The position numbers and the translations under genes are program-made. Below the pieces are notes generated by a model. The model did no database searches and was not told where the DNA came from. It saw nothing but the letters and a program-made list of their open reading frames with translations. Source: a virus. From it: a stretch of DNA of 64,000 nt. The stretch is taken from the IMG/VR virus record IMGVR_UViG_3300025715_000001; one strand, written 5' to 3'. Positions 1,966 to 64,000 of this stretch are shown piece after piece (position 1 is the first letter of the stretch; each line of letters opens with the position of its first letter).

Positions 1966-1994
1966 GCGGCTATTATATCAATTGGTCTAAGGCG

Positions 1995-2402: not shown

Positions 2403-2421
2403 CCGTGCTTCGCCCGGTGCG

Positions 2422-2556
2422 CTATCCATCCCCGCCCTGAAGGACGGGGCCTTTCTCGCAAGCTTGGTAAATATCCGGGTCGTCATCCCGAAACTGGATG
2501 CACTTGGCGCATTGCAGATTGGTGGCGGCAATGCGCTTGGGGAGGGTGCCGGTCAT
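2422..2556 (-). pseudogene. 5' fragment of the small ORF split by the IS
   Basis: MTGTLPKRIAATNLQCAKCIQFRDDDPDIYQACEKG, then read-through into the IS hairpin. Its ATG overlaps the stop of the upstream 145-aa gene (ATGA). Confidence 0.3.
2430..2449 (+). repeat. IS subterminal imperfect palindrome CCCCG-CCCTGAAGGA-CGGGG
   Basis: Read directly. It has the same orientation and a similar loop to 909-928. Confidence 0.7.
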
Positions 2557-2990
2557 AACCGTGCTGCTGTGGCAAACAGCGCGTCCACGTGTGCATTGGT
2601 CAAACCGAGCGCGCTCGCGGCATTGACCACCGGAGGCCAATCCCGGCGAATCTGATTAGCAAATTCCCACTCCACTTGTACGGCACGCGGCTGCGTGGCG
2701 ACATACGCTTCCACCGCATCCAGCAGGCCAGCACTCAGCAGCGCCAACCGGGCTTGCCGGGGGGTGATGGTGGACGCATCGTAATACTGATTGACCGCCA
2801 AAGTTTCCCAGTCGGCGATGAGGGCGTCCAGGGATTCAGGATCAGCCTTCCAGGCGTCATACGCACTGCCGGTCAACCATTGCGCGTAGGGAATAGACGC
2901 GCCGGTGGCGGCATCGGTAAATTGCACCTGCACAAAACACTCGCGCCGATCGGGCACGTCTTCCAAGCGAAGCACGGTATAGCTCATCAT
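2553..2990 (-). CDS. hypothetical protein, possible tail-fibre assembly or chaperone protein
   Basis: Lies immediately downstream of the fibre gene, with overlapping stop and start (TGATG). The C-terminal ITPRQARLALL..GLLD segment resembles segments seen in fibre-associated phage proteins. Assignment is mainly positional. Confidence 0.45.
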   Translation of the reverse strand: MMSYTVLRLEDVPDRRECFVQVQFTDAATGASIPYAQWLTGSAYDAWKADPESLDALIADWETLAVNQYYDASTITPRQARLALLSAGLLDAVEAYVATQPRAVQVEWEFANQIRRDWPPVVNAASALGLTNAHVDALFATAARL

Positions 2991-4513
2991 CAAGTCCAGT
3001 CAGCGGGAATGTCCGCGAAGTTGGAAACAGTTGAAACAGAATGACCCTGCCAGCAATCGGTTTTAATCGGCGTACCGGTGCCAAACGCGCAATTCCACAA
3101 ATCCGGGGCCACACCTTGATTGCCGGTGTACGAGGTCACGCGGAAACAGTTGGTAAAGTCCACGCTCTGATTGAGAAAACGGGTACTCTGCTCGCCATCC
3201 GCATAGAAGATGTTGGCGTTTTGCTGGAGTTTAGGACAAGAATAGAAGGTCGAATTAAAAGATGTGCATTGCGTATTATAGCGAAAGAGATCCGTGGGAA
3301 TCGAACCGGTTAGGCCGGGGCAATTATAGAACGTATAAGCAAACCCACTCGTCGAAACCAGCGTGTTGTAGCGAAAGAGATCAGCGGGAATCCCGGTGAG
3401 ATTGGTGCAGCCGCGAAACGTCTGAAAAAACCCACTCGTCGAAACCAGCGTGTTGTAGCGAAAGAGATCAGCGGGAATCCCGGTGAGATTGGTGCAACTG
3501 AAGAACGTATAACCAAACCCATCCGTTGAAACCTGGGTGTTGTATCTGAAGAGATCGGTCGGGATGGAACCGAAGAGATTGGTGCAACCGTAGAACGTCG
3601 CATTAAACCCACTCGTCGAAACCTGCGTATTGTATCTGAACAAATCAGCCGGAATGGAACCAGTGAGATTGCTGCAACTGTAGAACGTCTGAAAAAACCC
3701 ACTCGTCGAAACCTGCGTATTGTATCTGAACAAATCAGCCGGAATGGAACCGGTAAGATTGGTGCAGCCGCGAAACGTCTGAAAAAACCCACTCGTCGAA
3801 ACCTGGGTGTTGTATCTGAAGAGATCAGTGGGGATGGAACCGAAGAGATTGGTGCAATCGCGAAACGTCTGATTAAACCCATCCGTTGAAACCTGGGTGT
3901 TGTAGCGAAAGAGATCGGTCGGAATGGAACCGGTGAGATTGCTGCAACCGTAGAACGTATAAGCAAACCCACTCACCGAAACCAGCGTGTTGTATCTGAA
4001 GAGATCGGTCGGAATGGAACCAGTGAGATTGCTGCAGCCGCGAAACGTCAGAAAAAACCCATTCGTCGAAACCTGGGTGTTGTATCTGAAGAGATCGGTC
4101 GGAATAGAACGAAGCCCAGTATTCTGAAACGTACTCAGAAAATTCGCCAACCCCGGAATAAACGGGATCACCCCGGTCCCGATCAGCCGCGCCCGATCCG
4201 CTGCATTGCTGCCCAGGCGGATATTCCCGCTACTCCGAAACCGTCCGCTGATCTTGACGGTATGGGTCTTGACGAGTTGATAGGTATGCGTTTTCAGCCC
4301 AATGGTGGTGAAGAACTCCACCACACCATCCCCCCAATCAATGCGAAACTCTGGAGCCGTGCCCGCGTTGATGTCCACGGTATAGGTCTGACCCGGCGCG
4401 GTGATTTGCACTGCGAGATTCCAGGTGGCCGGACTGAGCGGGGCACGGGTGCGAAGTCCCGCGTCATCAATTTCAACAGCGCGGGAACGGGGGGAATAGC
4501 TGGCGGGGTACAT
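2990..4513 (-). CDS. tail fibre / receptor-binding protein with 10 tandem ~30-aa leucine-rich-type repeats
   Basis: Track ORF 2990..4627. The ATG at 4513 (MYPASYSP) follows the upstream stop at 4522. The repeat GSIPxDLFRYNTxVSxxGFxxTFxGCxNLT occurs 10 times. Confidence 0.75.
   Translation of the reverse strand: MYPASYSPRSRAVEIDDAGLRTRAPLSPATWNLAVQITAPGQTYTVDINAGTAPEFRIDWGDGVVEFFTTIGLKTHTYQLVKTHTVKISGRFRSSGNIRLGSNAADRARLIGTGVIPFIPGLANFLSTFQNTGLRSIPTDLFRYNTQVSTNGFFLTFRGCSNLTGSIPTDLFRYNTLVSVSGFAYTFYGCSNLTGSIPTDLFRYNTQVSTDGFNQTFRDCTNLFGSIPTDLFRYNTQVSTSGFFQTFRGCTNLTGSIPADLFRYNTQVSTSGFFQTFYSCSNLTGSIPADLFRYNTQVSTSGFNATFYGCTNLFGSIPTDLFRYNTQVSTDGFGYTFFSCTNLTGIPADLFRYNTLVSTSGFFQTFRGCTNLTGIPADLFRYNTLVSTSGFAYTFYNCPGLTGSIPTDLFRYNTQCTSFNSTFYSCPKLQQNANIFYADGEQSTRFLNQSVDFTNCFRVTSYTGNQGVAPDLWNCAFGTGTPIKTDCWQGHSVSTVSNFADIPADWT
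3230..4110 (-). repeat. about 10 tandem 87-90-nt coding repeats inside the fibre gene
   Basis: DNA units such as gaaacctgggtgttgtatctgaagagatc recur with a 90-nt period. The protein motif DLFRYNT occurs 10 times. Confidence 0.85.
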
Positions 4514-4521
4514 GAGCCGTC

Positions 4522-4941
4522 TCAGGTGTAGGGAATCGCGCGACCGGTGACGTACAGGTATTTCCCGCCCGCCAGCGCCGCATCCAGACTGATTTGCAAC
4601 TTCGCACCTGCCGGAACCCAGATGCACAGCACGCCATCACTCCCAGCCACGCCGAGCGTACTCAACACGTTGATGCGGGCGTCTGTGGCACCGTTAGTAC
4701 CGGACAGATCGGGTACGGCGACCGAACCGTGCAACTGGCTGACTGAGCCGTCATGCAGATAAATCTTTGCCACCCGATCCGCGGAGTTATCGGTCGTGAT
4801 AATCAGCGCCTCGACCTTCAGCGCCACACTGCCGCCGCTGTTGTCAAGGACATCCACGATATTCGTCGAATCAGAATCGGCCAGTCGCTTCGCCACCAAA
4901 GAACGCAAGGAGGTAGCGGGATACGTAGGATTCGAGGCCAT
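4522..4941 (-). CDS. hypothetical virion/tail-associated protein
   Basis: 139-aa ORF packed between fibre-type genes. No recognisable motif. Confidence 0.5.
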   Translation of the reverse strand: MASNPTYPATSLRSLVAKRLADSDSTNIVDVLDNSGGSVALKVEALIITTDNSADRVAKIYLHDGSVSQLHGSVAVPDLSGTNGATDARINVLSTLGVAGSDGVLCIWVPAGAKLQISLDAALAGGKYLYVTGRAIPYT

Positions 4942-5228
4942 TACAGTTCAGCTCCAAAATTGAGGGCAACCAGATATTTCGCGTAGTTATCCGGGGCGAG
5001 GGCGGCAATCGCTTGGGCAATGCGCACCGGGGACAGCGCCCGAACCGCCGTTTCCGTGCCGGCTTCCATTTCCGCTTGCGAGGCAGTCGTGGCAATCGCC
5101 AGCTTCTCAGCATCGAGTTCGTTGATTGCGCCCTGAACCGTAGTGGCAGTAATCGAACCAGCCGGGGTGTTGGGGATAGACGCCGCCGTGGTGGCGGCGG
5201 GTTGCCAGAGGGGTTCAAAAAGGCTCAT
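4941..5228 (-). CDS. small tail-fibre-like protein
   Basis: 95 aa. The segment ASQAEMEAGTETAVRALSPVRIAQAI resembles the conserved A..EA..GT....MTP motif of many phage tail-fibre proteins. Confidence 0.5.
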   Translation of the reverse strand: MSLFEPLWQPAATTAASIPNTPAGSITATTVQGAINELDAEKLAIATTASQAEMEAGTETAVRALSPVRIAQAIAALAPDNYAKYLVALNFGAEL

Positions 5229-48394: not shown

Positions 48395-48451
48395 TCATCA
48401 TCAGGCCTGCGGTGATCGCAGTCCGTTTGACACGATAGACAGGATTTGACC

Positions 48452-51400
48452 ATGGCGAATTGGTGGGATGCCCCGTCCGATGAATCGGCGGTTGCTGAAT
48501 CGGCTCCAACCCTGCTGGATACCGCGACCCTGGAGCGACAAGCCCGCCAGGCCCAACTGGCCGAATTGCTCCGCCCCACGCCCACGTCCGCCGAACCGTC
48601 CATCCTGTCGACGCTGGACAGCTACCGCCAAGCCAAAGCCGCTGCCGCGAATCCGCCCCCTGTCATAGCGGCGCCGGCAGTACCAGAAGATGCCAATCGT
48701 TCGCGCACCTGGGGAGAAGTAGGCGGCGACGTACTGGCCGGGTTGGCGCGCGGCGCGACTGGCATCACGCAGGGCATGGCCAATCTGGCCGATCTGGCCA
48801 CGTTCGGTGGCGTCTCGGCACTGACCAAAGCCGGTGGCAGTTTGGCGGATTCGCTGCTCGGCGGTCGCGGCGAAGGCTATACCCTCCAGGAAGCGAATCG
48901 AGAAATCGGACAAGCCATCGAAGGGATGGAATCGGCCCCGCTGCGCCAACAGCGCCAGCAATTCGCACGCACGCTGCAAGAAACCGGAACGCAGGGCGGC
49001 GTATCGGGGGCGCTGGATAAATTCGTCACCGGCGCCAAGGAAACCCTGACCAATCCGATGTTGTTGGGGCAGTTCGCTACTGAACAAGTCCCGATGATCG
49101 CCACGCTGGGCCTGGGCACGATCGGCACAGCAGCCAAGGCTGAAGCGGCGGCCAAAGCGGCGGGGCTGACCGGCCAGGCGGTTCGTGATGCAGGGATTCG
49201 AGCCGCCGAACGGGCGAACATTCTGGCATCAGGCGTGCTGGGTTCCGGGTTTAGCAGTCAGCAAGCAGCGGATGCGATCCTGAATGCGCCCATCGAGGAC
49301 CTGTTCAAGAACGAGCAATACGTCGAGTTAGCCAAGACCCTGGGTGATCGGGGCGCGCGGGCGGAACTGGCGCGCCAGGCCGGGTATCCCGCAGCGGCCA
49401 TCGCGGGACCTCTGTCGGCGCTGGCGGGCCGGATTACGGCACCGCTGGAAACGCGGGCGTTTCTGGGGCAACTCCCCAAGGGGATTACGCCGGCACTGGT
49501 TGCGGGCGGCAAGGAAGGACTGGAAGAAGCCCTGCAAGAACCCAGTGAACAATTCGGCTCGAATGTGGGCGAGCGGTTCGCGGGCATGGACAAATCCCTG
49601 TGGGAGGGCCTCCCGGAAGCAGCGGGCCAAGCCGGCGCTGCCGGTTTTCTGATGGGCTTGGGGTTAGGCGGCGTCAACGTCCTGCAAAATACCCGGTTGG
49701 AAGGCCAGCAAGCCGGCGCCACCGGCGAATATGCTGCCAAGCGCCTCGACCAGTTATCGCTGGCCGGGTTGACGGATGCGGACCTCGATACCGCGATCCA
49801 GCAAACCCAGCAAGTCATCGCCACGCCCAAGCTCCCGCCCGCCTTGCGCGACCGGCTCACCGCAGCGATGGGGCGGCTTAACGGCGATCAGCAGGCGCGC
49901 GCCAATGGCGATGCGCTGCGGCAAGCGTTCGGCGACTATGCGGCGGCTACGGCCCCCGAAGCCTTGGTCGACCTGCCCGCCGATGAGCAAAGCCGGGTTC
50001 TCCAGGAGGCTGCGTTTGGTACGCTGTTCGCGCCCCGCACCCGCAACACCCTGGTCGGGATGAGTGCGCCCGACAAGCTGAATCAGTTGAACGACGCCGA
50101 AATGGCGCAGGCCGGCCAGGTGGCGGTGGATGCGGCAACCCTGCTAGCGCGCGCCAATCAGCCCGAACTGGAACCGGAAATCCGGTCGCTGCTGGACGCC
50201 GCCCGCACCTACAGCGGCGAATTGCACCAGCGCCGGTCTGCCGCCGATTTAGCGAGTGAAGTCACTGGCCCGGACGGCGCGGATCGGGCACGCGCACTGC
50301 TGGACAGCGTGACCCGGATCAACGGCAACGCGCAACAGTTTCTCAGCCCTGAATATCAGCGGGCGACGCTGGCCGACGACCAGTTGCCCCGGCTGCTGGA
50401 GCGCGGCCAAACCCTGCTGCGCCTGGACGCCGATCCCGCCATACCGTTCAATCTCGCGGCGCCGCAACGGGCGGCGCTGACGACGGCGCTGGGCCATTTG
50501 CGCGCGGAACAGGAAAACCGACAAACCGAGGGCTGGCAACAACGCAACCAGACCCTCAGTCAGATCGAAACCCCCAAGGTCAAGGAAGTCGAGGCGGCGC
50601 TGACGCGCAAGGATGTTTCGACCTGGCTGAATGACAAATCGCGCGGCCCGCAGTGGTTGCCGGCGCTGCAAGGGGCGCTGGATCAGGCGGATGCGCGGAT
50701 CGCGTATCGGCAACAGATTGGCGCTACCGAGGCGGATGACTATCAACGCCTGGTCGCCAATCGGGCGCTGCTGCGCCAGAAGATCGAGACGCTGACCGCG
50801 CAAGCGGAGCAGGCGCGCAAAAAAGCGTTCGATGAGGATTGGCGGTTTGCCCCAGGCCAAGCATCCGCCAATGAAGTCACCGACGATCAGGGGCGGGAGT
50901 GGGTCCGCAATAAGGCCGGGCAGTGGGTCCCCAGATCTGCCGACCAGCAGCGGATTCATGATCTGGCCCTGCAACTGGATGCGCAAAACCGGCAACAGGC
51001 CGCTCAATCCGACGTAGCGCCGGATTGGCAACAGCGCCAGCAAGCGATCCTGGATCGGGAAACCGCCTTCCGGGAACAGCAGCAGCAAGCCAGCGAAGAG
51101 CGCCGATTCCAGCAGGATCAACAGCGACTGGAGCAGCAACGCCAGCAGGGGATTCGGCGGGCACAACTGGCCGCCCAGATGGGGCTGTCGCCCGACGAAC
51201 TCTTGCAACTGTCCGAAGTGAATACCCTCCGCGCCCGTGCTGGCCTGCCGTCCCTAACGGCGGCGGAGTTCAAGGCAGTGCGCTCCACGCTCCAGGGATC
51301 GCACCCCGACGGAACGCCGGCGATGACGCAAGAGGAATGGAACGCCGCGACTCGATTTTACCGTTCAGGAAAGAGCAAAAATGCAGAAACGCCATCAGGC

Positions 51401-51614
51401 GAACGAATCATTCTGACATCGGATGTTACGGAAAAAACGTTTAGAGAAAAATCGGCTGAATTTCTCAGAAAAATTCGGAGAAACTATATTGTCAGCGCCA
51501 TCCGCGACGGCAAGCCTGTCCCTCAAGCTGTTCTCGACGACTACCCCGATTTAGCGCCCAAAGCGATAACGCCGGCTTCGCCCGTAACTCCTTCCCCGAC
51601 CCCGGAATCCCCCA
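48452..51614 (+). CDS. module A of the stop-free frame: large virion-type protein with NO in-frame stop in this assembly
   Basis: ATG at 48452 with an AGGA upstream. Protein-like frame-2 translation up to ...DDYPDLAPKAITPASPVTPSPTPESP. One extra C in the C5 run 51609-51613 would create ...ESPQ-TGA overlapping the ATG at 51615. Confidence 0.5.
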
Positions 51615-54600
51615 ATGAGCCTAACGAAGCAAATCGAGAACCATCTACTGAAGCAGGGAGCGCCCTCGGAGTACGCCCAGGCCAAGGCGCGGGCCGTCGC
51701 CTTGCGCTATCAGCCCCCCGCTCGCCCCGCCGCACCGTCGAAGCCCTCGCCGACGCCGGGCGCATCGTCACTATTGACGAAGACGCCGGGCTGATTGAGG
51801 CGGTCGAAGAACAGGTTGATCCTGAAGACCCCAGCCTGATCTTTACCCGGCTGAGCGTCAACCGCGACCGCGCCCAGCAGTTGCTGGTCGAACGGGATGC
51901 GGCGCTGGGGTTGCGCTTCCCCGGCCTGGAACCGGGCCGGCTGGCCGAAGACCTGCAAATCGTTCCGACCTACCGGGAGGCGGCTGATCCTCAACGCGCG
52001 GCGGACACTGAAACCGACGACACCGCCGATGGCAATTGGCGGGTGTCCCTGGCCGGCGAGCCTGAGCGCGCCCACTCGGTTTTGATCCGCGCTGTGCGCG
52101 TGGACGACATCGAGAGCCAAGACCAGACGCTGTACGCGCCTGCCGGCCCGGTCTATCTGGGTCGCGGCAAAAACGAGCGCGACCTGGAAAGCCTCGTGCT
52201 GTACCGGGTAGGCGAGGACGCTACCCTGTACGACTTCCTGGATGCTATCGAACAGGCCAACGCCCGGCTGGTGGTGCGCGCCAGCGCCGAACGCAATCAG
52301 GCGACGCTGGACCGCTATTTTACCACCGCCGACACCCGCGCTCCGGTCTGGGTAGCGAAGGATGCGGATGGCGTGGTGGTGGACTGGTCCATCAGCCGGG
52401 AAGGGCTGCAACGCCGCCAAAGCGATACCGGCGCGACGCTGGAGCGCATGACCAAGCAGGACTGGCAAAGCCGCCAGCAGGACACGCCGATCTTCGAGGA
52501 CATCGCCCAGGCGCTGGAGCGGTTCGGCGCGGACGACGGAACGCTAGAGACCGCGCGGCAGCAGGTGGCCGGCCTCAAGGCGGAACTGGCCTTGTGGCAA
52601 AAGAGCCGCGCCGAAATCCCGGAGTACATGCCGGGCGGGCGGTATCACGTCGGCGTCCAGAAGGGCATCGTCGAACTGGAAAAGAGACTGGCTGAGGCTC
52701 AAGACACCCTGGCCGAAATCACCCTCCAGACCCCGCTGACAGCCCCGGACGGTTATCAGTTCAAGGCTGAGAAGAAAAAGGGAGGGCGCTGGTACAAGTT
52801 CTACTCGCAAGCGCCCAACGACCGGGAATGGAAGCCCATGGACGGCAGCGTTTCGGGATTGGATCCGCAGAATGCGCTGGCCTACCTGCAAGGCATCATC
52901 CAGCAAGAGCATCAGGCGGCTGAGGTAGGATCGGGGTCTGGGGTCGAATCCGAGCCCGCACCAACACCCGCGCTCACCCTGCTGCAAAAAGCCGCGATCA
53001 AGGTGATCTCCGAACAATACTATGGGGATGCGTGGCGGCTGGCGGGGCCGCACAACAAAGAGTTGCGGCGCGATCTTTACCAGAATCTCCTGGATGGTAC
53101 CGGCCAGAAAGCCACCATCGCCAATTCGGGCGTCGGCGCGATTCGAGATCGGTTGGTTGAACTGGCCGGGATCAGTAAAGAAGGCAAGGCGATTGTCGAG
53201 TGGGAAAACGAACTGACCGACTGGATGAAGAACGTGCTGGCGGCCAAGGGACCCGTGCCGGCGCCTCGTCCTGCCCCCACTCCCGCGCCCGCTGAACCCG
53301 TTGCCCAAGAATCGCCGTTAGGGCCGCTCGATGAGGCGCTGGTGCAACGCTGGGAAGCGACGCTAAAAGGTCAGCGCCGCGAAAAAGACCCACAAGCCGT
53401 CATCGCAGCCGCGCAAAAGCAACTGCAAGAACAAATCACTGGATGGAATACAGTACGCGCCGAATCCGACAAAGCATTACAGGATGCGGGAACGCGCCCG
53501 GACGGCAAACCTCGGCAGGTCGCCAATGCGGCGCTGATGAAGCGGTCGAAGAATTTAGCCGATCAGGCGGATAAGCTATTCCAGGAAATCCAGGACACGC
53601 GCGCGTTTATTGCGGCTACTGAGCGGCGGTATGGATTAACCCAACAGCCCGCTCCCGCCCCGCTCACCGAAGCCCAGCAAATCACCGAAGTCGAAGAATT
53701 GCTGTTTGACCAGTTGTTGAGCCAAGTGCCGATGCGTCACATGCTGGCCAACGACACCAATCAGTTGATGGTTGAAGTTGATTTAGTTCGCAAAGAAATC
53801 GGCACTCTGTTGGCGCAATGGATGGTAGAGCAGCTCGACGAGAATCCCAACGCCGACATCGGGGCGACTGTCAACCGAATTTACGAGGACTGGCAGAACG
53901 CCGACTACGCCGAGCGGATGACACGCCAACTCATCGCCACCGCCAAGACGATGCGGCAGACGGCGGCGACGGTCCCCGCCGCCCCCACTACCGTCGAAAC
54001 GCCCATTGGCCCCGCCCAAGCCAGACCGGCTGGGCCTGGAGTAACGGCGATTGAGCTGCCCGTGGGCGCAGCGACCCCGGCCCCGACGCCTGCGGCTCCA
54101 CCAGCCCGTCCTGCAGACTACGGCAAGGGCAACACCATCTTTACCGAAGACGCTGCCGCCAAGGCGCGCGAGTTGCTCAAGCGCAAGCTGGGGCAACTGA
54201 ACGCGGGGCTGGATCCGGAACTGATTCAGGCCGGCATCACCCTGGCCGGCTATCACATGGAAGCCGGCGCGCGGGCGTTTGCCGATTACGCCAAAGCGAT
54301 GATTAGCGACCTCGGCGAAGCGGCGCGTCCGTTCCTGCGCTCGTTTTATGAAGGCGTCCGCCATTATCCGGGCTTCGACAAGACGGGATTGACGCGGTCG
54401 AATGACTTGGATTACTCCGAGAAGTGGGAGATTTGGCCCGGCGATACGTTCAGGATCAAGGGCCAGAACAAGACGGTAGCCTGGCTGAATGAGCATCGCG
54501 TGTATTTTGAGGACGGCACTGAAGTTTCCGCTATCAATCTGGCGTCGGCCAAGCCCGATTGGGAATTGGTAGCCCGCGTCGGCGCAATGCCGCAGGAAGC

Positions 54601-54653
54601 GGCGCCAATAACCCCGAATTATGGTATACTCTCTACGGAATCTCCTGCATTAA
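51615..54653 (+). CDS. module B: starts in frame 0 (MSLTKQIENHLLKQGAPSEYAQAKARAVALRYQ) and continues in frame 2 after the C6 run; no in-frame stop
   Basis: GC3 and residue composition favour frame 0 for 51615-~51713 and frame 2 from ~51734 (TVEALADAGRIVTIDEDAGL...). The end coordinate is nominal. Confidence 0.4.
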
Positions 54654-54665
54654 AGGAGGAAAGCC

Positions 54666-54995
54666 ATGTTAATCCCACCGTCACGACCGCAACTGCTGCG
54701 GACAATAGACCTGGCGTTGCAGGATCAAGACCCGGAGCGGTATCAGCGCCTGCACCAGAGCCAGGAACTCCCGACCTTTCTTCAGAATCGGGCCGAGGAA
54801 ATGGAGGAGGCGTACTTCGAGGGCAAGGACGCGGTGATCGAGGGAATGCTGCGCTTTCAGCAAACCCAGCCGGAAGGGGACGCGGCGGCCTGGATCCAGA
54901 CCCAGAGCCTGGCGTTGTGGCACCAAATCCTGGCGGACTTCCTGGAATTCCGCCCACTGAGCGAAGCGATTACCGACTCCCCCTGGGAGGATTGA
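54666..54995 (+). CDS. 109-aa ORF in frame 0, nested within the open frame 2
   Basis: AAAGGAGGA SD at 54652-54660 and a TGgTATACT extended -10-like site at 54622-54630. GC3 is roughly 75% in this frame against about 40% in frame 2 (hand count). Confidence 0.65.
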   Translation: MLIPPSRPQLLRTIDLALQDQDPERYQRLHQSQELPTFLQNRAEEMEEAYFEGKDAVIEGMLRFQQTQPEGDAAAWIQTQSLALWHQILADFLEFRPLSEAITDSPWED

Positions 54996-57900
54996 CCCGC
55001 GAAGGCTCGTGGCTGGCGACTGCGCAACGCAACGCCGACATTCTCGAACTGGCGGCCCGCATCGAAAACGAGGGCCGCCCTGCCACCCCCGACGAACAAG
55101 CCCTGCTGGTCAAGTATGTGGGCTTTGGCGCGGGCGAAATCCGCAACAAACTGTTCCCGCCAGCAACGCCGGAAGAACTGACGCAAGACCCGGACGCCAA
55201 TCGCCGCATCCGTCCTGCCATCACCCGCCGCTATCTGCAAACCACCGGCATCAGTGCCGCCGAACAAAAGCGGTGGATCGCCGTCGCCGAACGCCTGGAA
55301 CGCGCCCTGACGCCCGACGATCAGGAAACCCTGCTGCGCTCCACTCAGTACGCCCACTACACCAGCGAATCCATCATCCGCTCGATTTGGCGGGCGATGG
55401 AACAGTTCGGCTTTGGTGGCGGCAAGGTACTGGAGCCGGGCATGGGCATTGGCAGTTTTGCCCTGGCCATGCCGGAAGGGATTTACCGCGCCAGTCAGTA
55501 TGTCGGCGTCGAGATGGACGGTCCTACCGCGCGCATCGCCAAGCTGCTGTCGCCGCGCCAGACCATCAATCAAGCCGATTTCACCAGGCAGTCGCTGCCC
55601 CGCGATTACTTTGACGTGGCGATTGGCAATCCGCCCTTCAGCCGCACCATCATCGAATCCGATCCTGAATACGCCGCGCGGCGGTTCTCGCTGCACGATT
55701 ATTTCTTTGCCAAGTCCATGGACCGGGTACGGCCCGGTGGGCTGGTGGTGTTCATCACCAGCCGGCACACCCTGGACAAGCAGAACGACAAGGCGCGCAC
55801 CTATCTGGCCGAGCGGGCCGATTTTCTGGGCGCGATCCGGTTGCCGCAAACGGCGTTCAGCGCCAATGCCGGCACCGAAGTCGTCACCGATGTGATCTTC
55901 CTGCGCAAGCGCCAACCGCTTGACGCGCCCGCAGGCGCCTCTTGGACCGGGCTGGACACGCTCACGACCGCCGATGGTCCCGTGGCGGTCAACGAATACT
56001 TTGTCGCCCACCCCGAAATGATCCTGGGCCAACCGCGCCTGAGCGGCAACCGGGACGATCTGAACCGGTACATCTCTGGCCTGCATCCGGGCGACTTTAC
56101 CGTGGTGTCCTACGACGACTCACCCGCCGAACTGGAAGCCCAGTTCGCCAAGGCGGTCGAAACGTTGCCGCGCAATCTCTACAGCCCGGTGCTGCAAGAC
56201 CCGGAAACGGTGCGCACCGTGACCGCCCAGCGCGATTTCGCACCCAAGACCAATCGGGAAGGAGCGTTGTACCTGGCCGATAACGGCACGCTGATGCGGG
56301 TCGAGAACGGCGCTGGGCGGCCCCTGAGCGAAGTTGCGCCCTGGCTGAAGCCCAAACAACTGCCGTTCGTCCAGGACTATCTGGGGCTGTTGCAGCAGGT
56401 ACGCGCCACCAAGCTAAGTCAATGGGAAGACGGCGCCTGGGAACAGGAACTGGCCGCCCTCAATGCCCGTTACGATGCGTTCCGCGCCCAGCACGGGCCG
56501 CTGCTGGCCTATACCGTGCAACAGCGGGTCGCGCCCGAAGTCAAGGAGACCTGGGCGGCGTTGACCGTCGAAGAGCGGCGCTGGGTGTTTGATGCGGCCA
56601 AGATTCCCTTCCAAGCCTGGGAGAAGATGACGCCGGAGACCAAACGCGCGATTGCGCAGGCACTGAGTGATCAGGCGGCGTTGCCGGCGGCGATTCGGGA
56701 CAAGCTGGCGGAACGCATCAGCGAAGACAATGACCTGCTCAGCGAAAGCCGAACCTTCCAAAACAAACGACTGTTGGAACTGGACAGCGACAGTTCGGTT
56801 GCCTACGCCCTGGAAAACATCAACGAACAGGGCGACATCGTTAAAGCCCCGTTCCTGAAGGGGCGCACCATTCGCCCGCCCCAAGCCCGGACCGTCGCCA
56901 CCCCTCAAGACGCGCTGGCGGTGTCGCTGGATCGCAAGGGCTATCTGGATTTGGCGGACGTGGCCGGCGAACTGGACCTCGACCGCGACGAGACGCTGGC
57001 CCGGCTGGGCACGCTGGTCTACCAAACGCCAGCGGGCGAATGGCAGTTAGCCGACGAGTACCTGTCCGGCGACGTAGTGACCAAACTGGCCGAGGCTGAA
57101 CTGGCGGCCCGCCTCAACCCAGCGCTGCAACGCAACGTCGAGGCGCTCCGCGATGTACAACCGATGCCCAAAGGAATCGGAAGCATCACGGTCAAGATCG
57201 GCGCGGGCTGGATCGAACCGCGCTACATCGAGCAGTTTGCGCGCGAGGCGCTGGAACTGCCGGCGCGAGTGACGTTTGACCCGCTGACGACCACCTGGCA
57301 AGTCCGGTCGGAAGATACCAGCGGACGCCGCAATGAACGGGCGGTGGCGCATCCCTATGGGGTGCTCAACCAGCTATCGCCCTACGAGGTGTTGCAGGCG
57401 GCGTTGCGCAATACCCGCATCACGATCAGCGACACCGTGCGCAATCCCGACGGCAGCAAAGCCACAGTCACCAACACCGAACTGACGCTGCGGGCGAACG
57501 AACTGGCGAAGCAGATCGGCGAGCAGTTCAAAGCCTGGGTCTGGCGCGACGGCGTGCGGGCGCTGGATTTGGTCAATACCTACAACGACCGGTTCAACCG
57601 GTTGGCGGGACGCAAGTTTGACGGTTCCCATCTGACCCTGCCGGGCTTGTCGCTGCGGTATGTCCTGCACCCCCATCAAAAACGGGCGATCTGGCGCATT
57701 ATCCAAACCGGCAATACTTATTTGGCGCACGCGGTCGGGGCCGGTAAAACCCTGGAACAGATTGTGGCCGGTATGGAGCAACGGCGGTTGGGACTGATTC
57801 GGCGCCCGATGTACGTGGTGCCCAATCACATGCTGGAGCAGTTCGCGTCCGAGTTCATGGACGCCTACCCCACCGCGAACATCATGGTGGCCAGCGGCAA

Positions 57901-60900
57901 AAACTTTACCGGCGACAACCGCAGACGGTTCCTGGCGCAAGCGGCGCTCAACAATCCCGACGCCATCATCCTCACCCACAGTTCGATGAAGCTGATCGGA
58001 ATGCGGGAAGAAACCCTGGCCCCGGTACGCCGCCAAATCCTGAACGACATCCAGGAAGCGATTGCCGAACTGGGGGCCGGGCAGGACACCCGCATTTTGC
58101 GGTCCCGGCTGGAACAGCAATACGAACAGGCCCAGCAGCGGTTTGACAAAATGATCGGCAGTGGCGACCGGAGCGGCACGTCCATTCGCTTTGAAGACCT
58201 GGGCGCCGATTTCGTGTTCTACGACGAAGCCCACGAAGCGCGCAAGCTGGATTTCACCACCGGGCTGCAAATCAAGGGTATTGATCCGAAAGGCTCCTGG
58301 CAGGCGCTGGATTTGTACGTCAAGACCCGCTGGCTGGAAGCGCAGCATCCAGGACGGTCATTTGTGTTCGCCTCCGGGACCCCGGTCACGAATACGATGG
58401 GCGAACTGTTTACCGTGATGCGCTTTTTCGATGAAGCCAGTTTGCGGCAACTGAACGTCCATACCTTCGATGCCTGGGCGGCGATGTTCGGCGAAGAGGT
58501 GATGGAATACGAGCCGGACGCCACGGGGGTATTGAAACCGGTTTCGCGGTTCTCCAAGTTCAACAACGTGCCGGCGCTGATGGCGCAGGTGCGGTCCTTC
58601 ATGGATATTTTGACCGGCACCCAGTTACGGTCGGTGGTCAAGAACATCCCCCAGATCGAAGGCGGCGCCCCGGCGATGCTGGAAGCAGACAAGTCGCCGG
58701 ACCTGAATACCTACATGCAGCAGGTGCTGGCGCCGCGCCTGGAGCAATCGCGGAGATTCAAACCCTCTCGTGAGGAACCGGGTAATCCAGACCCGATCAT
58801 GGCGATCAATAACGATGCTCTGCTGGCGTCCATTGATTTGCGCTTTACCAACCCAGCCTTGCCCAGCGACCCCCATTCCAAGCTCAACCGGATGATTGAC
58901 GAAATCATCACGGACTATCGCGCGGGGGCAGACCAGATTTATCGAGACCGCGACGGGCAGCCGATGGTGTTGCCGGGCAGTACCCAAATCGTGTTTTACA
59001 ACGTGGGCTTCGGCGAAGGGGTGTTAAACCGGCGCGGATTCGATGCGCGCGCCTGGGTGAATCGGCGGCTTAAGCAAGCCGGGATTCCGCTGGATCAAGT
59101 CGCCTGGTTCGATGACGCCAAAACCGCCGCCAATAAAGAGCGGGTCTTCCGCGATGTTCGCGCCGGTAAGGTGCGCATCCTGCTGGGGTCGGCCAAGAAA
59201 ATGGGCACGGGCGTCAACGTACAAAATCGGCTGGAAGTCTTGCACTACCTGGATCCGCCCTGGTATCCGGCGCTGGTCGAGCAGCCGTTCGGGCGCATTC
59301 TGCGGCAAGGCAACCAGAACCCCACGATTCGGATCAAGCTGTACGGCACCAAAGGCACGTATGAGGCGGCGCAATGGGGGCTGCTGGCGCGCAAGATGCG
59401 CTTTATCGAAGCGGCCTTGTCGGGCGACAGCACGATTGACAGCATTGAAGACGTGTCGGCGGCTTCGGTGTACGAACAGGCCACCGCCGCCGTAGCGGGC
59501 GACCCGCGTTTCAAACAACTGGCCGACCTGACCAACACCATTCGCAAGCTGGAAACCCTGCGCGCCGCGCATCAGCAAAATCAGGCGGCGTTGCATGGCC
59601 GGCAGCGGGACCTGGAAAACAGTCTGGACTGGAAAACCCGCTATGCGCGGCATTGGCGCGTGGTGGAAGAGGAATTGGGCGAATACGCTGAACGGGCGGT
59701 CTTCGAGTCCGGCGAACTGAACGGCAAGACCTACACCAAGCGCAACGAATTTGCCGAAGCCCTGTTCCAGGAAGTCAATCGGCGCTTGCCGAAGCTTCAG
59801 GATGAAGGCGCGCTGGCGCAACTGGCGCAGCGCCCCATTCAGTTAGGCAAGCTCAACGGGCGATTCCCAATCGTTCTGCAAGGCAAGGCGGCGGGCCAAT
59901 ACGATACCAAAGAATTGAAATTGGTCGTCACGGTTCCCAGCGAGGAATTTTGGATTCGGAAACACGTGGGTTCGGATGTCGAAACTGAATTCCCTCTCGC
60001 ACAAAGCGGCTACGACCTCGGTAGTGCGCTGAACAAAATGAGCAGTAGCGGTCAAACCCGCCGCAGTTACGAAGACGAAATTCGGATCGCGCAAGAAGAC
60101 TTACGACGCACGATGGCCCAAATCGGCGCTCCATTCCCGCAAGAAGCGGAATTGGGCCGGGCCATTGCCGACCGCGCGGCGCTCGAACAGGAGATGACCG
60201 AAGCCAAGATGCCGATTCCGGCGGATGACCGCTTGGTGGCGGAAGCCGAAGCGCGGCGCATCGAACATCAGGAACAGGCCCAGCGCATCGCGCAAGCAAC
60301 TCCCACCACCCCGCCCCAACGCTTTGCCATTGCCGCCACCCCCGCCTCGGTGCGCGCCTCGCTGGAAGCCATTGCCGGTGACCGGATCGTACAAGACCTG
60401 ATAGACGCCGGCTCGCTGGCGCTGGTCGCTACCCAGCAGGACGCGGTACGCCGGTCGCAAGGCCGGATTCAGATTCCCCCCGGCCAGCGGGTCGGCGGCG
60501 CGGTAGACCCGGAAACCGGGACCGTGTACCTGATCGCCGAGCACATCCGCCCGGAAGACGTGGCCGGACTGCTGCGTCACGAGGTCGCGGTGCATCAGCG
60601 GCGCCTGGGGCTGGATCAACCCAAGCCGCGCGCCCTGCGGCTCGCCATGGCCTTGTTGCGCCTGACGCCGGCACGGCAATGGATGGGCGAGACCACATTC
60701 GCGGGCGTGCTCGACCAGATGGAACGGATGCGGAAGGCCGGTAACGTTCGCGTGGTCGCGGCTTTCGAGCAGGCCCTGAAGGCGATGAAGGCGCTGAACC
60801 AGGACGTGAACAATCCGCAGTTGGTCGCCGAGGAGGCGCTGGCGTACCTGGTCGGCGACCAGGCCAATGCCGACCTGCCGCTGTTCCGCCGCATCCTGGC

Positions 60901-63900
60901 CGCCGTGCGCGCCTTCCTGACCCGCGCCGGGTTCAAGCTGGACTTGACCACCGATGATCTGGTGCTGCTGGCGCAATCGGCGCTGGAAACCGCCGCGCAG
61001 CGGGAAGTGCGGGCGGGGGCGATGACGCGGGGCGTGTTTGGCGCTGAAACCACTGCCAGTTTGATGGATCGGTTCAGGAAGACCGGGTTTATCAGCAATC
61101 GAGACGTGCTGGGGATCCTGGGGGACTACCCGCAATATCTGAATACCGTGGCCGAATACATCCTGAGCCAGCATCAAAAGCTGATCGAGGGGAAGGTCAC
61201 GCCGCGCGATGTCGCCAAAGCCTATCTGCTGACCCTGGCCAGCCAGCGGTCGGATGCCATCAATCCGGCTGTGATTCAGGCGCGCACCGGGTTTGTCGTG
61301 CCCGAACGGTTTATTGACCAGAACGGCAAAGTGCGCCCGGAAGAAGCGACGGCGGCCTGGCTGTTGTCCCCCAATGGCAAACGGGCGCTGGACGCGATTG
61401 AACAAGGCCGCCTGGAACCCGCGTTGTGGGAAGAAGGGTTGCAGATACGGGATGCTTTCGGAGCCAATGTCCCCCGCAACCAAGCGTTTACCGAGCGCAC
61501 CTATCAAAAAAATTATGGCGGAAAGCCGCGCACCGAAACCCGCCAGTACAACAATCTGCACGAAATCCTGGCCGTCACGCAGGCCATCAACGCCGCCAAG
61601 GGCGATACGCAAAAGCTGGATGTCGCGTTGCGCAATATGGCCGGGATTGGCCCCGGCAAGACGGGGTTCATCAAGCATTTTCTGGGACTGGGCGATACCC
61701 CGACCGCGGATGCAGTGGAAATCAATACCTGGCTGACCGGTTTGGGTAGCGTCAAAGGGGTCGAAACCGAAGCAGCGACGCTGGCGCGCGAGTTTTCCGA
61801 CAAGAGTGACAAGCCAAAATTGGCAGAGGGCTTCGTTTCCAGAATTGAGCGCCGATTCAACCAGTTAAAGGATCAAACCAATATCCCGGAAAAATATAAG
61901 GATAATCGGGTTTACCAGCATCTCATGCACCATTGGTTGTGGGAACGCGCCAAAGGGCTGCAAACGACCCATGCCGGGGTCTACGAAGCGATGCTGCGGG
62001 CAGCGATCGCCCAGGAAGACGCCGAAGCGGCCCGGCAGTACGCCGAGGTCGTGGCCCGCTACACCAACCCGGACGGTTCCAAGAAAGCCGGCTGGCTGAA
62101 AGCGCCGAACGGGCAACCGACAAAGCTCAACGAGCGGCAGTGGGTGCAGGTAAGGACTCCCAACACCGGCGCGTTCTCCCCGGTCAACCCCGATATTCGC
62201 TATGCCTATGCCGGCGAGCGGGCGGCGACGGGCCAGTACGGCGTGCCATGGCCTACCGATTTTCCAAACATTACGCCGTTGTCCACCATCGCCAAGCTGA
62301 AAGCGCATCCCGAGTACCTTGCAGCCAAGACCGGCGACCGCGCAGCAGCGGTGCGCGTCATCAGCGCCATCATGCAGCGTGACCAGCAAACCAAGTTGCG
62401 CGCGCTGGCCGCTCGGTATCCTGATGCCATAGTCGTACCAGTTCATGCGGTGGAACGTAATGGGACCAATAAGATTCCAAGAACGTTTGCCGATTTTATC
62501 AGTGAACTGACCGGGCTATCGGTTGATACTTCTATCGTGCAAACCAACAAAGTCGGGCGAACCAGCCAAAATACCTGGCATCGCCTGGCGTTTCGCCCGC
62601 AGTTTGATGGCGACGTGCGCCCTGGCGCCCGCTATCTTTTAGTCGATGATGCGGTTACGGGCGGCGGTACGTTTAGCGAATTGCGCCAGTTCATTGAAGG
62701 GCGCGGCGGGCGAGTCGTACACCTGGCGGCTATCGGCGCGGCGCAATTCAGTGCTAAAATAGCCTTATCCGAATCCACCTATCAAACCCTGGAGGCTCGT
62801 TATGGCGCTGAAAACCTCGAACGGTTCCTCCGCGACCATTCCCTCTACGGCGGCAACCCTCGCGCCCTCACCGAGTCCGAAGCCCGCACCCTCCTGGGCG
62901 CCGGGACCCTTGACGCCGCAGGAGATCGAATCACTGCGGCAATCGAACAAGAGCGACTCAGAAGCCAATCGCCGGGAGTTCAAGGCGCTGTTGCAGAAAC
63001 AACGCCTGACACCGTAACGCCGCCTTCGGGCGGCCCCCAACGCTTCGCCATCGCCATCGCCCCCGGCACCCCGCCGCAGATGACCCTGCCGCCGATGACG
63101 CGGGTCGAGGTGCTGCGCCGGGCGATTCAAGACCGGTTCCTGCGCTTCAAGACCCTGCAAGACTGGCTCAAGAAGACAGGCATCAACCTGACGCCCGACG
63201 CCGACGTGTACGGCGAGGAAGAACGCAGCGTTAAACGCTTCGCCGCGCAGGCGCAAGACTTCCGCGACCAGACCCTGACCCCGCTGGTGCAAGCGGCGGG
63301 CCAGGCCGGCTATGCCGTCACCGGGGGCGACTTCATCGCCGCGCTGATGGACGGCCAGTCTTTGCCGGCGCGTTTCAAGCCCAGCATCCCGGAATACCTG
63401 ATCGCCCAACACGCCGCCGAGCGCAACCGGGCCATCGCCAAGATCAACCCGCGCTATGCGGATCCTGATCAACCGGGGTCCGGGCTGACCGACGCTGAAG
63501 CGGCAACCATTCTGGCCCGCTACCGCGCCCTGCCCAACTTCGCCGCCTTCGAGCGCATGGCCGAGCAGTTCCGGGCCATCGCCGAGGGCACCAAAAACCT
63601 GTTGCTGGACGCCGGCATCCTGAACGCCGAGACGGTCGCCGCCTGGGATGCGGCCTATCAGCACTATGTCCCGCTCAAGGGCGGCCCGGACGACGCGCCC
63701 GCGAAACAGGGTACTGGCCCCGGTAATTCAGTGGTGGCCCGCCAGCGCCGTGCCATGGGCCACGATCTGCGCGCCGAGAACGTACTGGAAAACATCTTCC
63801 GCGACCGGGAACGCGCGCTCTTCAACATCGAGAAAAACAAGGTCGGCCAGGCGCTCAAACAATTCGTGGAGCAGGCCAACAATCCGGCCATCGGCACGGT

Positions 63901-64000
63901 CGGCCAGCCCGAAAAGCACGCTACTTTGATCCAGGGCTGGCTGCACGAGGTCTGGATTGAGGGCCGCCCGCTGGGGGCCTACCAGAGCTACAACGACGCC
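54992..64000 (+). CDS. DarB-like polyvalent protein: N6-adenine MTase + SF2/SNF2-type helicase + further domains including a PRTase-like domain; 3' end outside the window
   Basis: TTG at 54992 overlaps the TGA of the 109-aa ORF. VLEPGMGIGSF at 55427-55459, GNPPF at 55625-55639, GAGKT at 57737-57751, DEAH at 58223-58234, QPFGRILRQGN at 59282-59314, YLLVDDAVTGGGT at 62633-62671. No stop before 64000. Confidence 0.75.
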   Translation, partial: MTREGSWLATAQRNADILELAARIENEGRPATPDEQALLVKYVGFGAGEIRNKLFPPATPEELTQDPDANRRIRPAITRRYLQTTGISAAEQKRWIAVAERLERALTPDDQETLLRSTQYAHYTSESIIRSIWRAMEQFGFGGGKVLEPGMGIGSFALAMPEGIYRASQYVGVEMDGPTARIAKLLSPRQTINQADFTRQSLPRDYFDVAIGNPPFSRTIIESDPEYAARRFSLHDYFFAKSMDRVRPGGLVVFITSRHTLDKQNDKARTYLAERADFLGAIRLPQTAFSANAGTEVVTDVIFLRKRQPLDAPAGASWTGLDTLTTADGPVAVNEYFVAHPEMILGQPRLSGNRDDLNRYISGLHPGDFTVVSYDDSPAELEAQFAKAVETLPRNLYSPVLQDPETVRTVTAQRDFAPKTNREGALYLADNGTLMRVENGAGRPLSEVAPWLKPKQLPFVQDYLGLLQQVRATKLSQWEDGAWEQELAALNARYDAFRAQHGPLLAYTVQQRVAPEVKETWAALTVEERRWVFDAAKIPFQAWEKMTPETKRAIAQALSDQAALPAAIRDKLAERISEDNDLLSESRTFQNKRLLELDSDSSVAYALENINEQGDIVKAPFLKGRTIRPPQARTVATPQDALAVSLDRKGYLDLADVAGELDLDRDETLARLGTLVYQTPAGEWQLADEYLSGDVVTKLAEAELAARLNPALQRNVEALRDVQPMPKGIGSITVKIGAGWIEPRYIEQFAREALELPARVTFDPLTTTWQVRSEDTSGRRNERAVAHPYGVLNQLSPYEVLQAALRNTRITISDTVRNPDGSKATVTNTELTLRANELAKQIGEQFKAWVWRDGVRALDLVNTYNDRFNRLAGRKFDGSHLTLPGLSLRYVLHPHQKRAIWRIIQTGNTYLAHAVGAGKTLEQIVAGMEQRRLGLIRRPMYVVPNHMLEQFASEFMDAYPTANIMVASGKNFTGDNRRRFLAQAALNNPDAIILTHSSMKLIGMREETLAPVRRQILNDIQEAIAELGAGQDTRILRSRLEQQYEQAQQRFDKMIGSGDRSGTSIRFEDLGADFVFYDEAHEARKLDFTTGLQIKGIDPKGSWQALDLYVKTRWLEAQHPGRSFVFASGTPVTNTMGELFTVMRFFDEASLRQLNVHTFDAWAAMFGEEVMEYEPDATGVLKPVSRFSKFNNVPALMAQVRSFMDILTGTQLRSVVKNIPQIEGGAPAMLEADKSPDLNTYMQQVLAPRLEQSRRFKPSREEPGNPDPIMAINNDALLASIDLRFTNPALPSDPHSKLNRMIDEIITDYRAGADQIYRDRDGQPMVLPGSTQIVFYNVGFGEGVLNRRGFDARAWVNRRLKQAGIPLDQVAWFDDAKTAANKERVFRDVRAGKVRILLGSAKKMGTGVNVQNRLEVLHYLDPPWYPALVEQPFGRILRQGNQNPTIRIKLYGTKGTYEAAQWGLLARKMRFIEAALSGDSTIDSIEDVSAASVYEQATAAVAGDPRFKQLADLTNTIRKLETLRAAHQQNQAALHGRQRDLENSLDWKTRYARHWRVVEEELGEYAERAVFESGELNGKTYTKRNEFAEALFQEVNRRLPKLQDEGALAQLAQRPIQLGKLNGRFPIVLQGKAAGQYDTKELKLVVTVPSEEFWIRKHVGSDVETEFPLAQSGYDLGSALNKMSSSGQTRRSYEDEIRIAQEDLRRTMAQIGAPFPQEAELGRAIADRAALEQEMTEAKMPIPADDRLVAEAEARRIEHQEQAQRIAQATPTTPPQRFAIAATPASVRASLEAIAGDRIVQDLIDAGSLALVATQQDAVRRSQGRIQIPPGQRVGGAVDPETGTVYLIAEHIRPEDVAGLLRHEVAVHQRRLGLDQPKPRALRLAMALLRLTPARQWMGETTFAGVLDQMERMRKAGNVRVVAAFEQALKAMKALNQDVNNPQLVAEEALAYLVGDQANADLPLFRRILAAVRAFLTRAGFKLDLTTDDLVLLAQSALETAAQREVRAGAMTRGVFGAETTASLMDRFRKTGFISNRDVLGILGDYPQYLNTVAEYILSQHQKLIEGKVTPRDVAKAYLLTLASQRSDAINPAVIQARTGFVVPERFIDQNGKVRPEEATAAWLLSPNGKRALDAIEQGRLEPALWEEGLQIRDAFGANVPRNQAFTERTYQKNYGGKPRTETRQYNNLHEILAVTQAINAAKGDTQKLDVALRNMAGIGPGKTGFIKHFLGLGDTPTADAVEINTWLTGLGSVKGVETEAATLAREFSDKSDKPKLAEGFVSRIERRFNQLKDQTNIPEKYKDNRVYQHLMHHWLWERAKGLQTTHAGVYEAMLRAAIAQEDAEAARQYAEVVARYTNPDGSKKAGWLKAPNGQPTKLNERQWVQVRTPNTGAFSPVNPDIRYAYAGERAATGQYGVPWPTDFPNITPLSTIAKLKAHPEYLAAKTGDRAAAVRVISAIMQRDQQTKLRALAARYPDAIVVPVHAVERNGTNKIPRTFADFISELTGLSVDTSIVQTNKVGRTSQNTWHRLAFRPQFDGDVRPGARYLLVDDAVTGGGTFSELRQFIEGRGGRVVHLAAIGAAQFSAKIALSESTYQTLEARYGAENLERFLRDHSLYGGNPRALTESEARTLLGAGTLDAAGDRITAAIEQERLRSQSPGVQGAVAETTPDTVTPPSGGPQRFAIAIAPGTPPQMTLPPMTRVEVLRRAIQDRFLRFKTLQDWLKKTGINLTPDADVYGEEERSVKRFAAQAQDFRDQTLTPLVQAAGQAGYAVTGGDFIAALMDGQSLPARFKPSIPEYLIAQHAAERNRAIAKINPRYADPDQPGSGLTDAEAATILARYRALPNFAAFERMAEQFRAIAEGTKNLLLDAGILNAETVAAWDAAYQHYVPLKGGPDDAPAKQGTGPGNSVVARQRRAMGHDLRAENVLENIFRDRERALFNIEKNKVGQALKQFVEQANNPAIGTVGQPEKHATLIQGWLHEVWIEGRPLGAYQSYNDA

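Follow-up and report, generated by a model that had tools for sequence, protein, structure and literature searches.

A giant DarB-like phage gene with a conserved small gene predicted out of frame in one of its linkers

The window analysed here is a 64,000-nt stretch of one strand of the virus record IMGVR_UViG_3300025715_000001 (IMG/VR) and is a Bcep22-like podophage genome. From position 48452 to its end it carries a single open reading frame (ORF) that we interpret as one giant gene encoding a DarB-like protein. Three protein-like bodies in this frame are joined by two low-complexity stretches, connector 1 and connector 2, and connector 2 is, judging by comparative sequence analysis, coding in two frames: the small ORF it carries in the +1 register has the properties of a live, conserved gene for a 109-residue protein. 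We consider this explanation as a whole to be highly probable. Under it, translation would begin at ATG 48452 and continue through both connectors, which would serve as flexible linkers of low complexity, and this reading through would join the N-terminal modules to a methyltransferase-helicase core of the P1 DarB type in a protein of at least 5183 residues. Internal initiation on the same late mRNA at 54666, from a Shine-Dalgarno site of its own, would yield an acidic, four-helix protein of 109 residues. The giant protein would be packaged and then ejected with the DNA, as for its homologs in Bcep22 and JC1 and for P1 DarB. The elements on which this explanation turns are as follows.

48452..64000, plus strand: giant frame-2 ORF of at least 5183 codons that the window end truncates; homologous to the 'DarB-like' virion proteins Bcep22 gp75 and Cimandef gp14
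54622..54630, plus strand: extended -10-like element TGGTATACT, 36 nt upstream of the embedded ATG
54653..54659, plus strand: Shine-Dalgarno site AAGGAGG, 6 nt before the embedded ATG 54666
54654..54991, plus strand: predicted dual-coding linker of the giant protein (connector 2), frame 2, about residues 2068-2180; predicted disordered, with many G, P, A and R residues
54666..54995, plus strand: embedded gene, frame 3 (+1 relative to the giant frame), predicted 109-residue acidic protein

A six-frame stop scan confirmed the starting point of an earlier, sequence-only reading of this DNA, namely that one plus-strand frame is open from ATG 48452, its first ATG, to the window end (5183 codons). 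The stop-free stretch of frame 2 runs from 48431 to 64000 (15,570 nt), the runner-up across all six frames measuring 2,877 nt, and the giant frame was missing from the ORF list because that list omits ORFs that run off the window end. The same reading had put the chance of finding three bodies in one frame with both connectors free of stops at below 1 percent, an estimate that proved about right. The product of 1/9 (three bodies, one frame), 0.055-0.115 (110 stop-free codons; a stop-free -1 frame of this length is found in 5.5% of windows in this phage's genes) and ~0.3 (40 codons) is ~0.002-0.004. GC content at third codon positions (GC3) is about 0.75-0.85 (~0.78) over most of the giant frame, as is typical of coding sequence, and in a codon-usage log-odds scan frame 3 beat frame 2 at three places only, at 51632, at 54632-54932 and, weakly, at 62912.

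Both connectors had been described as low in GC3, with translations rich in G, R and P, and as carrying gene-boundary signals in other frames. This description held best for connector 2, where GC3 in frame 2 falls to 0.35-0.40 while GC at the first and second positions is about 0.80 and 0.70 (the first up to 0.85), an inversion that spans 54632-54990. The signals found there, AAGGAGG, ATG 54666 and a TGA, all belong to one frame-3 ORF, the stop of which (54993-54995) lies inside the DYRLPLGGLTREGSW motif that opens the DarB core. The predicted product begins Met-Leu-Ile-Pro and has a pI of 4.3 and a net charge of -12. AlphaFold modelled it, from only four sequences, as four helices with a pLDDT of 86 and a pTM of 0.72, compared to a pTM of 0.12 and no secondary structure for the giant-frame reading of the same DNA.

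The embedded ORF belongs to a family that can be recognized beyond the window. A family hidden Markov model (HMM) built without the window clade scored it at E=1.5e-28 and 95.8 bits, the top hit among 1435 six-frame window segments. Both Bcep22 and Cimandef carry a +1-frame ORF of ~107 residues at the same linker position behind a Shine-Dalgarno site (in Bcep22 at L001:13666-13989, with a translation that includes MTETQLLELLTK). The window version is a divergent branch, at 15-24% identity to these two. A profile search of 1.84 billion cluster representatives extended the family to 17 representatives, nearly all of ~100 residues.

Conservation was examined in 80 IMG/VR viral loci that had been fetched with an alignment of the conserved methyltransferase (MTase) start and not with a small-protein alignment. 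In 79/80 of them the +1 frame directly before the MTase module encodes a family member. These ORFs start with ATG in 78/79 loci and follow a Shine-Dalgarno-like motif (at least 4 nt) in 74/79, have a median length of 103 residues over a locus GC range of 0.37-0.70, and in most loci stop within ~40 nt of the DYRLPLGGLTREGSW motif. The embedded ORF was also present in 41/41 Burkholderia and Ralstonia phage records that matched the Bcep22 version; beneath the match, these GenBank/RefSeq records annotate only the giant coding sequence (CDS), the small ORF being annotated in 0/41. Three close metagenomic relatives (99, 84 and 76% identity) keep the small ORF together with a giant frame that is fully open across the contig.

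The pattern of substitution indicates which of the two frames is constrained. Across 54666-54950 in the window clade, 20/34, 31/52 and 28/52 substitutions fell at third positions of the small ORF, and the ratio of non-synonymous to synonymous substitution (dN/dS) over the embedded ORF was 0.21-0.36 in the small frame vs 1.5-1.9 in the giant frame. Directly downstream of the embedded ORF the phase flips to the giant frame, with dN/dS of 0.06-0.11. The Burkholderia and Ralstonia clades showed the same phase shift, so that the third-position excess was seen in three clades in total. In 14 independent pairs drawn from many lineages, substitutions were distributed 141/123/253 over codon positions 1/2/3 (p=3e-13), and the most variable position was the third position of the small ORF in 13/14 pairs and that of the giant frame in 0/14. 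This pattern places purifying selection and the amino-acid-level constraint on the small gene, with the overlapping giant frame constrained only to stay free of stops.

That the giant frame is indeed kept open was borne out by the comparison with related genomes that had been proposed as a check: it is open across connector 2 in every relative examined. No giant-frame stop occurred inside the embedded ORF in any of 79 loci (0 of 79). The frame was open over the whole ~6.8-kb locus in 77/80 IMG/VR loci, the nearest giant-frame stop lying upstream of the embedded ORF in the remaining 3, and it was open across the whole contigs in L003-L005, L018 and L020 and in 11/12 GenBank loci. With one sequence per cluster and the most permissive member chosen each time, the joint chance of an open giant frame over the small ORF was 1e-9.8 for 14 clusters and 1e-25 for 32 clusters. 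As a natural control, the equivalent -1 frame of a standalone Pelobacter homolog contains six stops. An ATG, GTG or TTG in the giant frame near the stop of the small ORF was found in only 1/79 loci; the MTase-helicase module therefore lacks a start of its own and would be made by reading through the linker. Translational coupling or reinitiation at this module was considered, a TTG overlapping the TGA in the window, but was rejected on the same count of canonical starts. In a low-GC phage (L057, GC 0.37) the giant gene has only ~85 codons ahead of the small ORF, which it still overlaps in full; dual coding would therefore be independent of a long N-terminal fusion.

One record departs from this layout. 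In Ralstonia phage RPZH6 (L011, MT361768) the giant gene is split into two CDS ~860 nt upstream of the embedded ORF (locus positions 618-639), and a stop interrupts the giant frame at locus position 324. Because no other relative is broken there, the split is likely a sequencing error.

The giant protein itself places the linker within a known architecture. In a tblastn search with the MTase-helicase region (54992-59500), 150 phage records matched, the best being Bcep22 with 46% identity over 96% of the 1503-residue query. The top matches were the giant 'DarB-like antirestriction' proteins of Burkholderia phages Bcep22, BcepIL02, BcepMigl, DC1, JC1 and CSP3, with ~30 Ralstonia phages likewise among the best (44-46% identity over 96-100% of the query in the top set). 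Megablast of this region against phages gave no nucleotide match, the relatives being visible at the protein level. In the relatives the protein is a single annotated CDS (Bcep22 gp75, 4602 residues; Cimandef gp14, 4545 residues), and BLASTP of the whole window frame against these two returned three to four colinear blocks. Window residues 1869-1981 correspond to Bcep22 gp75 1319-1433 (E=8e-26), 2173-3919 to 1567-3177, and 4860-5179 to 3677-3964 (E=1e-29), and residues 236-389 correspond to Cimandef gp14 399-557, in Cimandef only (E=5e-9). In unit 2 (below), phrog_10089 ('DarB-like antirestriction') matched at E=1e-46 and phrog_938 at E=6e-31. In distant relatives, one polypeptide thus already holds unit 2, unit 3 (54992-64000) and at least some of unit 1, and the fusion is therefore ancestral and not an assembly artefact. 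The modules of the giant protein are the following.

48452..51611, plus strand: unit 1, N-terminal region; no Pfam or PHROG match; residues 236-389 resemble Cimandef gp14
51734..54653, plus strand: unit 2; phrog_10089 and phrog_938; includes the conserved helical domain
54056-54394, plus strand: conserved helical domain, common to Bcep22 gp75 residues 1319-1433
54968..55030, plus strand: start of the DarB core module, 'DYRLPLGGLTREGSW...' motif, pattern R..G.L.R.GSW, placed by alignment; the TGA of the embedded ORF (54993-54995) falls within it
55355..55915, plus strand: N6-adenine DNA methyltransferase domain (Pfam N6_Mtase, Eco57I); NPPF at 55628 (residue 2393)
57659..59311, plus strand: SF2/SNF2-type helicase domain (Pfam ResIII, DEAD, Helicase_C); GAGKT at 57737 (residue 3096), DEAH at 58223 (residue 3258)
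63029..63988, plus strand: conserved C-terminal module, common to Bcep22 gp75 residues 3677-3964

With MTase NPPF and helicase GAGKT/DEAH motifs in one polypeptide, the window protein resembles the P1 DarB-type antirestriction enzyme. The MTase and helicase core of P1 DarB (2255 residues) is homologous to that of the window (E=3e-24, 2.5e-14 and 3e-11), the first of these scores corresponding to P1 DarB residues 91-275 aligned to the window MTase domain; P1 DarB is without the ~2200-residue N-terminal extension of the window protein. The closer family of Bcep22 gp75, BcepIL02 gp70, JC1 gp69 and Cimandef gp14 consists, like the window gene, of single ORFs of thousands of codons that end the virion module. 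Its members carry the helical domain, the linker, the MTase, the helicase and the C-terminal module in the same order as the window, at 41-48% identity, and the +1-frame gene is embedded at the same point. With at least 5183 residues vs 4515-4667, the window protein is the longer; for most of its first 1860 residues no counterpart could be detected in the Bcep22 family, and it is expected to extend ~640 further residues past the window end. The JC1 homolog gp69 was detected by mass spectrometry in CsCl-purified virions (PMC9144972), and by analogy with Bcep22 and JC1 the window protein would be packaged as well.

Of the explanations offered at the outset, a giant polyprotein with linkers derived from former gene boundaries is thus largely borne out by the single colinear proteins of the relatives and has to be amended in one respect: connector 2 would not be a non-coding relic but a live gene in the +1 frame. 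The small gene looks to be the older of the two frames because it has genome-typical codon usage, compared to the disordered, low-complexity giant reading, and the connector 2 linker is most likely, on these sequence grounds, the read-through of a formerly separate gene.

Several observations weigh against the dual-coding explanation. A stop-free -1 frame is not rare in a single genome, reaching 5-30% within GC-rich genes, and when the codons of the small ORFs are shuffled the -1 frame stays open at a frequency of 0.12-0.56. Openness in one genome is thus weak evidence, and the read-through argument therefore rests on comparative data. Translation of both products in this phage is something we infer from sequence, because of stop avoidance, the missing internal MTase start and selection on the small ORF. 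Relatives of 50900-52600 and of 51734-54650, sought in viral, metagenome and genome contigs and in a 5.8-billion-protein index, were not found. The small protein gave no Foldseek match below E=1 in the PDB and BFVD, no Pfam or PHROG family above threshold (TnpV, phrog_6126 and IDEAL being sub-threshold only), and P1 Ulx gave no significant match to the window giant protein or the embedded family (best E=0.34). The partner role proposed below thus lacks support from homology.

We next consider connector 1, where the evidence is of a different kind.

51612..51733, plus strand: connector 1 linker, P, S, G and R-rich in frame 2; overlapped by a 59-residue frame-3 ORF at 51614-51793

The compositional and boundary signals described earlier are weaker here. 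GC3 is 0.57-0.68, with a weaker inversion around 51570-51700, a single 40-codon window favours frame 3 (0.18 vs -0.14), and the boundary signal comes down to ATG 51614 overlapping a frame-1 TGA as ATGA (51614-51617), with no Shine-Dalgarno site before it. The frame-3 ORF ('MSLTKQIENHLL...') is helical-looking over its first 33 residues and proline-rich in the remainder, and it had no homolog among 5.8 billion proteins. A C5 run (51609-51613) and a C6 run (51714-51719) flank the connector, 2 of the 43 homopolymer runs of at least 5 in the giant ORF. Connector 1 is most likely an ordinary low-complexity linker. This is the most economical reading because A/P-rich linkers of Bcep22 and Cimandef, whose giant genes each show one further +1-frame score flip in such a linker, behave in the same way. 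Two more elaborate candidates were rejected. A truncated paralog of the embedded family in connector 1, suggested by a resemblance seen by eye, was not significant by HMM (E=2.1 and 6.6), and the idea that the giant genes of Bcep22 and Cimandef hold a further embedded gene was dismissed, the sole other flips being A/P-rich linkers with a junk +1 frame.

The alternative with most life in it concerns this connector alone, and we regard it as improbable yet worth keeping in mind: a real pair of compensating indels would have scrambled ~35 residues and left the ancestral reading in frame 3. Frame 3 is stop-free over 51614-51716, and between the C-runs it encodes an amphipathic helix-like peptide with the higher codon score given above, but the stretch comprises 34 codons only, its peptide has no homolog and no relatives cover the region, and similar score flips arise in ordinary A/P-rich linkers.

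Less likely still is that unit 1, unit 2, the small gene and the MTase-helicase gene are separate genes whose stops were lost to 1-nt homopolymer errors in the assembly, as the sequence-only reading had also offered. What invites this explanation lies at connector 1, with its flanking C5 and C6 runs (51609, 51714), its ATGA and a frame 3 that is more protein-like between the runs. Yet an extra C in the first run combined with a missing C in the second would leave the frame-3 stretch stop-free and the ORF still single, the giant ORF, with its 43 homopolymer runs, shows no other change of coding frame, and the codon-score flip is reproduced by low-complexity linkers of Bcep22 and Cimandef. The single giant protein of Cimandef, moreover, contains a unit-1-like segment, and the independent assembly L005 shows no indel relative to the window across 1338 nt. 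For connector 2 assembly error is excluded by the same layout in more than 90 independently assembled genomes and contigs; for connector 1 it is unsupported but keeps a small probability.

Programmed frameshifting or read-through, the third of the earlier suggestions, found no support. In its specific form, a programmed +1 frameshift would deliver ribosomes into the embedded ORF and give a truncated N-terminal product ending in the small-protein domain, plus the full-length protein. Phage structural genes often frameshift to make two products in a fixed ratio, and the two frames here do overlap in the +1 register. We nevertheless judge this very unlikely. Stops in the +1 frame lie 39-132 nt upstream of the embedded ATG in every lineage, the stop-free giant frame offers no 0-frame stop to bypass and no rare-codon pause site (slippery sites were not searched for), the ORF has its own conserved ATG and Shine-Dalgarno-like motif (78/79 and 74/79 loci, as above), and standalone homologs of ~100 residues exist.

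Least credible of all is that conserved, GC-rich linker sequence has thrown up the frame-3 ORF as a by-product without function: GC-rich DNA does give many spurious ORFs (192 of at least 90 residues are listed in the window) and the embedded ORF has no functional annotation, but the ORF persists at GC 0.37-0.50, its third positions and not those of the giant frame take up the substitutions, its fold is predicted with confidence, and profiles detect homologs of it, one of them a standalone gene.

Family members outside giant genes were seen in two settings. A standalone homolog of 157 residues (L021:10001-10474; profile E=2e-4) is encoded in Pelobacter propionicus DSM 2379 (CP000482), at the edge of a phage-satellite-like island with integrase, AlpA and D5-primase genes and no DarB-like gene nearby. 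Two metagenome contigs carry an intact 109-residue member in unrelated flanking sequence (L016:281-610 and L017:171-500), where the open part of the -1 frame begins no more than ~120 nt ahead of the ORF and closes soon after the 'GSW' motif; these look like recombination leftovers.

As for what the small protein does, searches gave little direct guidance. A PDB sequence profile search returned nothing, as did tblastn of family member P0009 against plasmids and phages. Membership in Pfam TnpV (PF14198) was rejected: four family members (P0007, P0011, P0012 and one other) gave colinear sub-threshold matches with a best E of 1.3e-4 and at most ~17 bits vs a 27-bit gathering threshold, and the window protein itself did not match. 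The Bcep22 and JC1 embedded ORFs matched positions 53-133 of phrog_6126 ('virion structural protein') weakly, at E ~1e-3. The TnpV and phrog_6126 matches are possible remote relationships and candidates only.

In P1, DarB function relies on small accessory proteins, among them Ulx, whose gene adjoins darB (PMC12810830, PMC11437467), and the JC1 (PMC9144972) and CSP3 papers state that accessory proteins of the P1 DarB kind have not been identified; published descriptions of these phages likewise report no DarA/Ulx-type partners. Because the small gene directly precedes the DarB core in every lineage, and because of this dependence of P1 DarB, our guess by analogy is that the small protein may be a partner of the DarB core, whether as chaperone, packaging adaptor or regulator. 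Tentatively, and with somewhat less than an even chance of being correct, we propose that it is the accessory factor so far missing for the giant DarB-like ejection proteins and that the linker arose by -1-frame read-through of the older gene. The P1 set comprises Ulx, DarA, Hdf, DdrA and DdrB. Ulx (146 residues) is encoded downstream of darB without overlap, whereas the embedded family lies inside the giant gene, and no embedded-family member was found in the P1 locus (first 26 kb, including darB and ulx). If the proposal is right, partner and giant protein would come from the same mRNA, and a 'gene inside a linker' would have persisted over long periods, in different host ranges and at GC contents of 37% to 70%.

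Expression of the small gene may have a further component. The extended -10-like element TGGTATACT may be an internal promoter for it: a -10-like hexamer (TATAAT with at most 1 mismatch, as in TACAAT or TATACT) was present at -50..-13 in 41% of 78 related loci (among L022-L101) vs 2% of control windows in the same loci. No full sigma-70 promoter was called in connector 2, and no -35 element accompanies TGGTATACT.

Out-of-frame embedded genes are of an already known kind. Gene B lies in A and E in D in phiX174, comS lies within the giant srfA-B synthetase gene of Bacillus subtilis, and Rz1 inside Rz, annotated in these same phages, is like the embedded gene a short gene with its own ribosome-binding site nested out of frame. 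The comS case shares with the window a giant multidomain gene as host. The window differs from the classic nested genes in that the host part is a disordered inter-module linker whose sole visible constraint is to have no stops, and in that the pairing is kept across GC 37-70% and at least 14 sequence clusters. The giant DarB-like proteins of Bcep22-like phages are likewise known already, and the window adds a longer, divergent member. What appears to be new is this embedded gene and its conservation, no mention of which was found in the literature searched, a search outside which the key Bcep22 and P1 Dar papers fell.

The giant DarB-like gene makes up more than 20% of these phage genomes, and a hidden gene conserved under purifying selection within it is an immediate candidate for a DarB-like partner. 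It would also be a well-replicated natural case of a disordered linker overprinted on the gene of a structured protein, and loss of the small gene's start codon can be brought about with the giant protein left unaltered. Real genes of this sort can escape gene callers that do not allow nested ORFs. In annotation, the 15.5-kb frame should stand as one gene, and a second CDS at 54666-54995 should be added.

In the window, the giant gene follows genes for the large terminase (36293), portal (37740) and major capsid (40986) on the same strand. This order, terminase/portal/capsid and then the giant gene at the distal end of the virion morphogenesis module, is common to the window, Bcep22 and Cimandef.

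Further features of the giant gene were noted along its length. The last ~100 residues of unit 1 (51300-51600) have a GC3 of 0.43-0.53 vs ~0.78 elsewhere in the gene and a clearly protein-like frame-2 translation; by its composition the segment looks foreign and recently acquired. An insert of ~60 residues ('DLDYSEKWEIWPGDTFRIKGQNKTVAWLNEHRVYFEDG...') at 54380-54600, after the conserved helical domain and ahead of the embedded gene, is present in the window and in the 99%-identical L005 and absent from relatives L003 and L004. The weak frame-3 lead on codon usage at 62912-63030 (0.24 vs -0.18) has no ATG and only ~40 open codons; it falls in a linker just ahead of the C-terminal module that Bcep22 also has, and low complexity is its probable cause. 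Two copies of the motif 'PQRFAIA' were found in the giant protein, at ~60317 (residue 3956) and ~63038 (residue 4863), each directly after a P/T-rich linker and just ahead of a new module. The two copies could be a module-boundary or processing signature, and Bcep22 has one similar motif, 'PKFSVA'.

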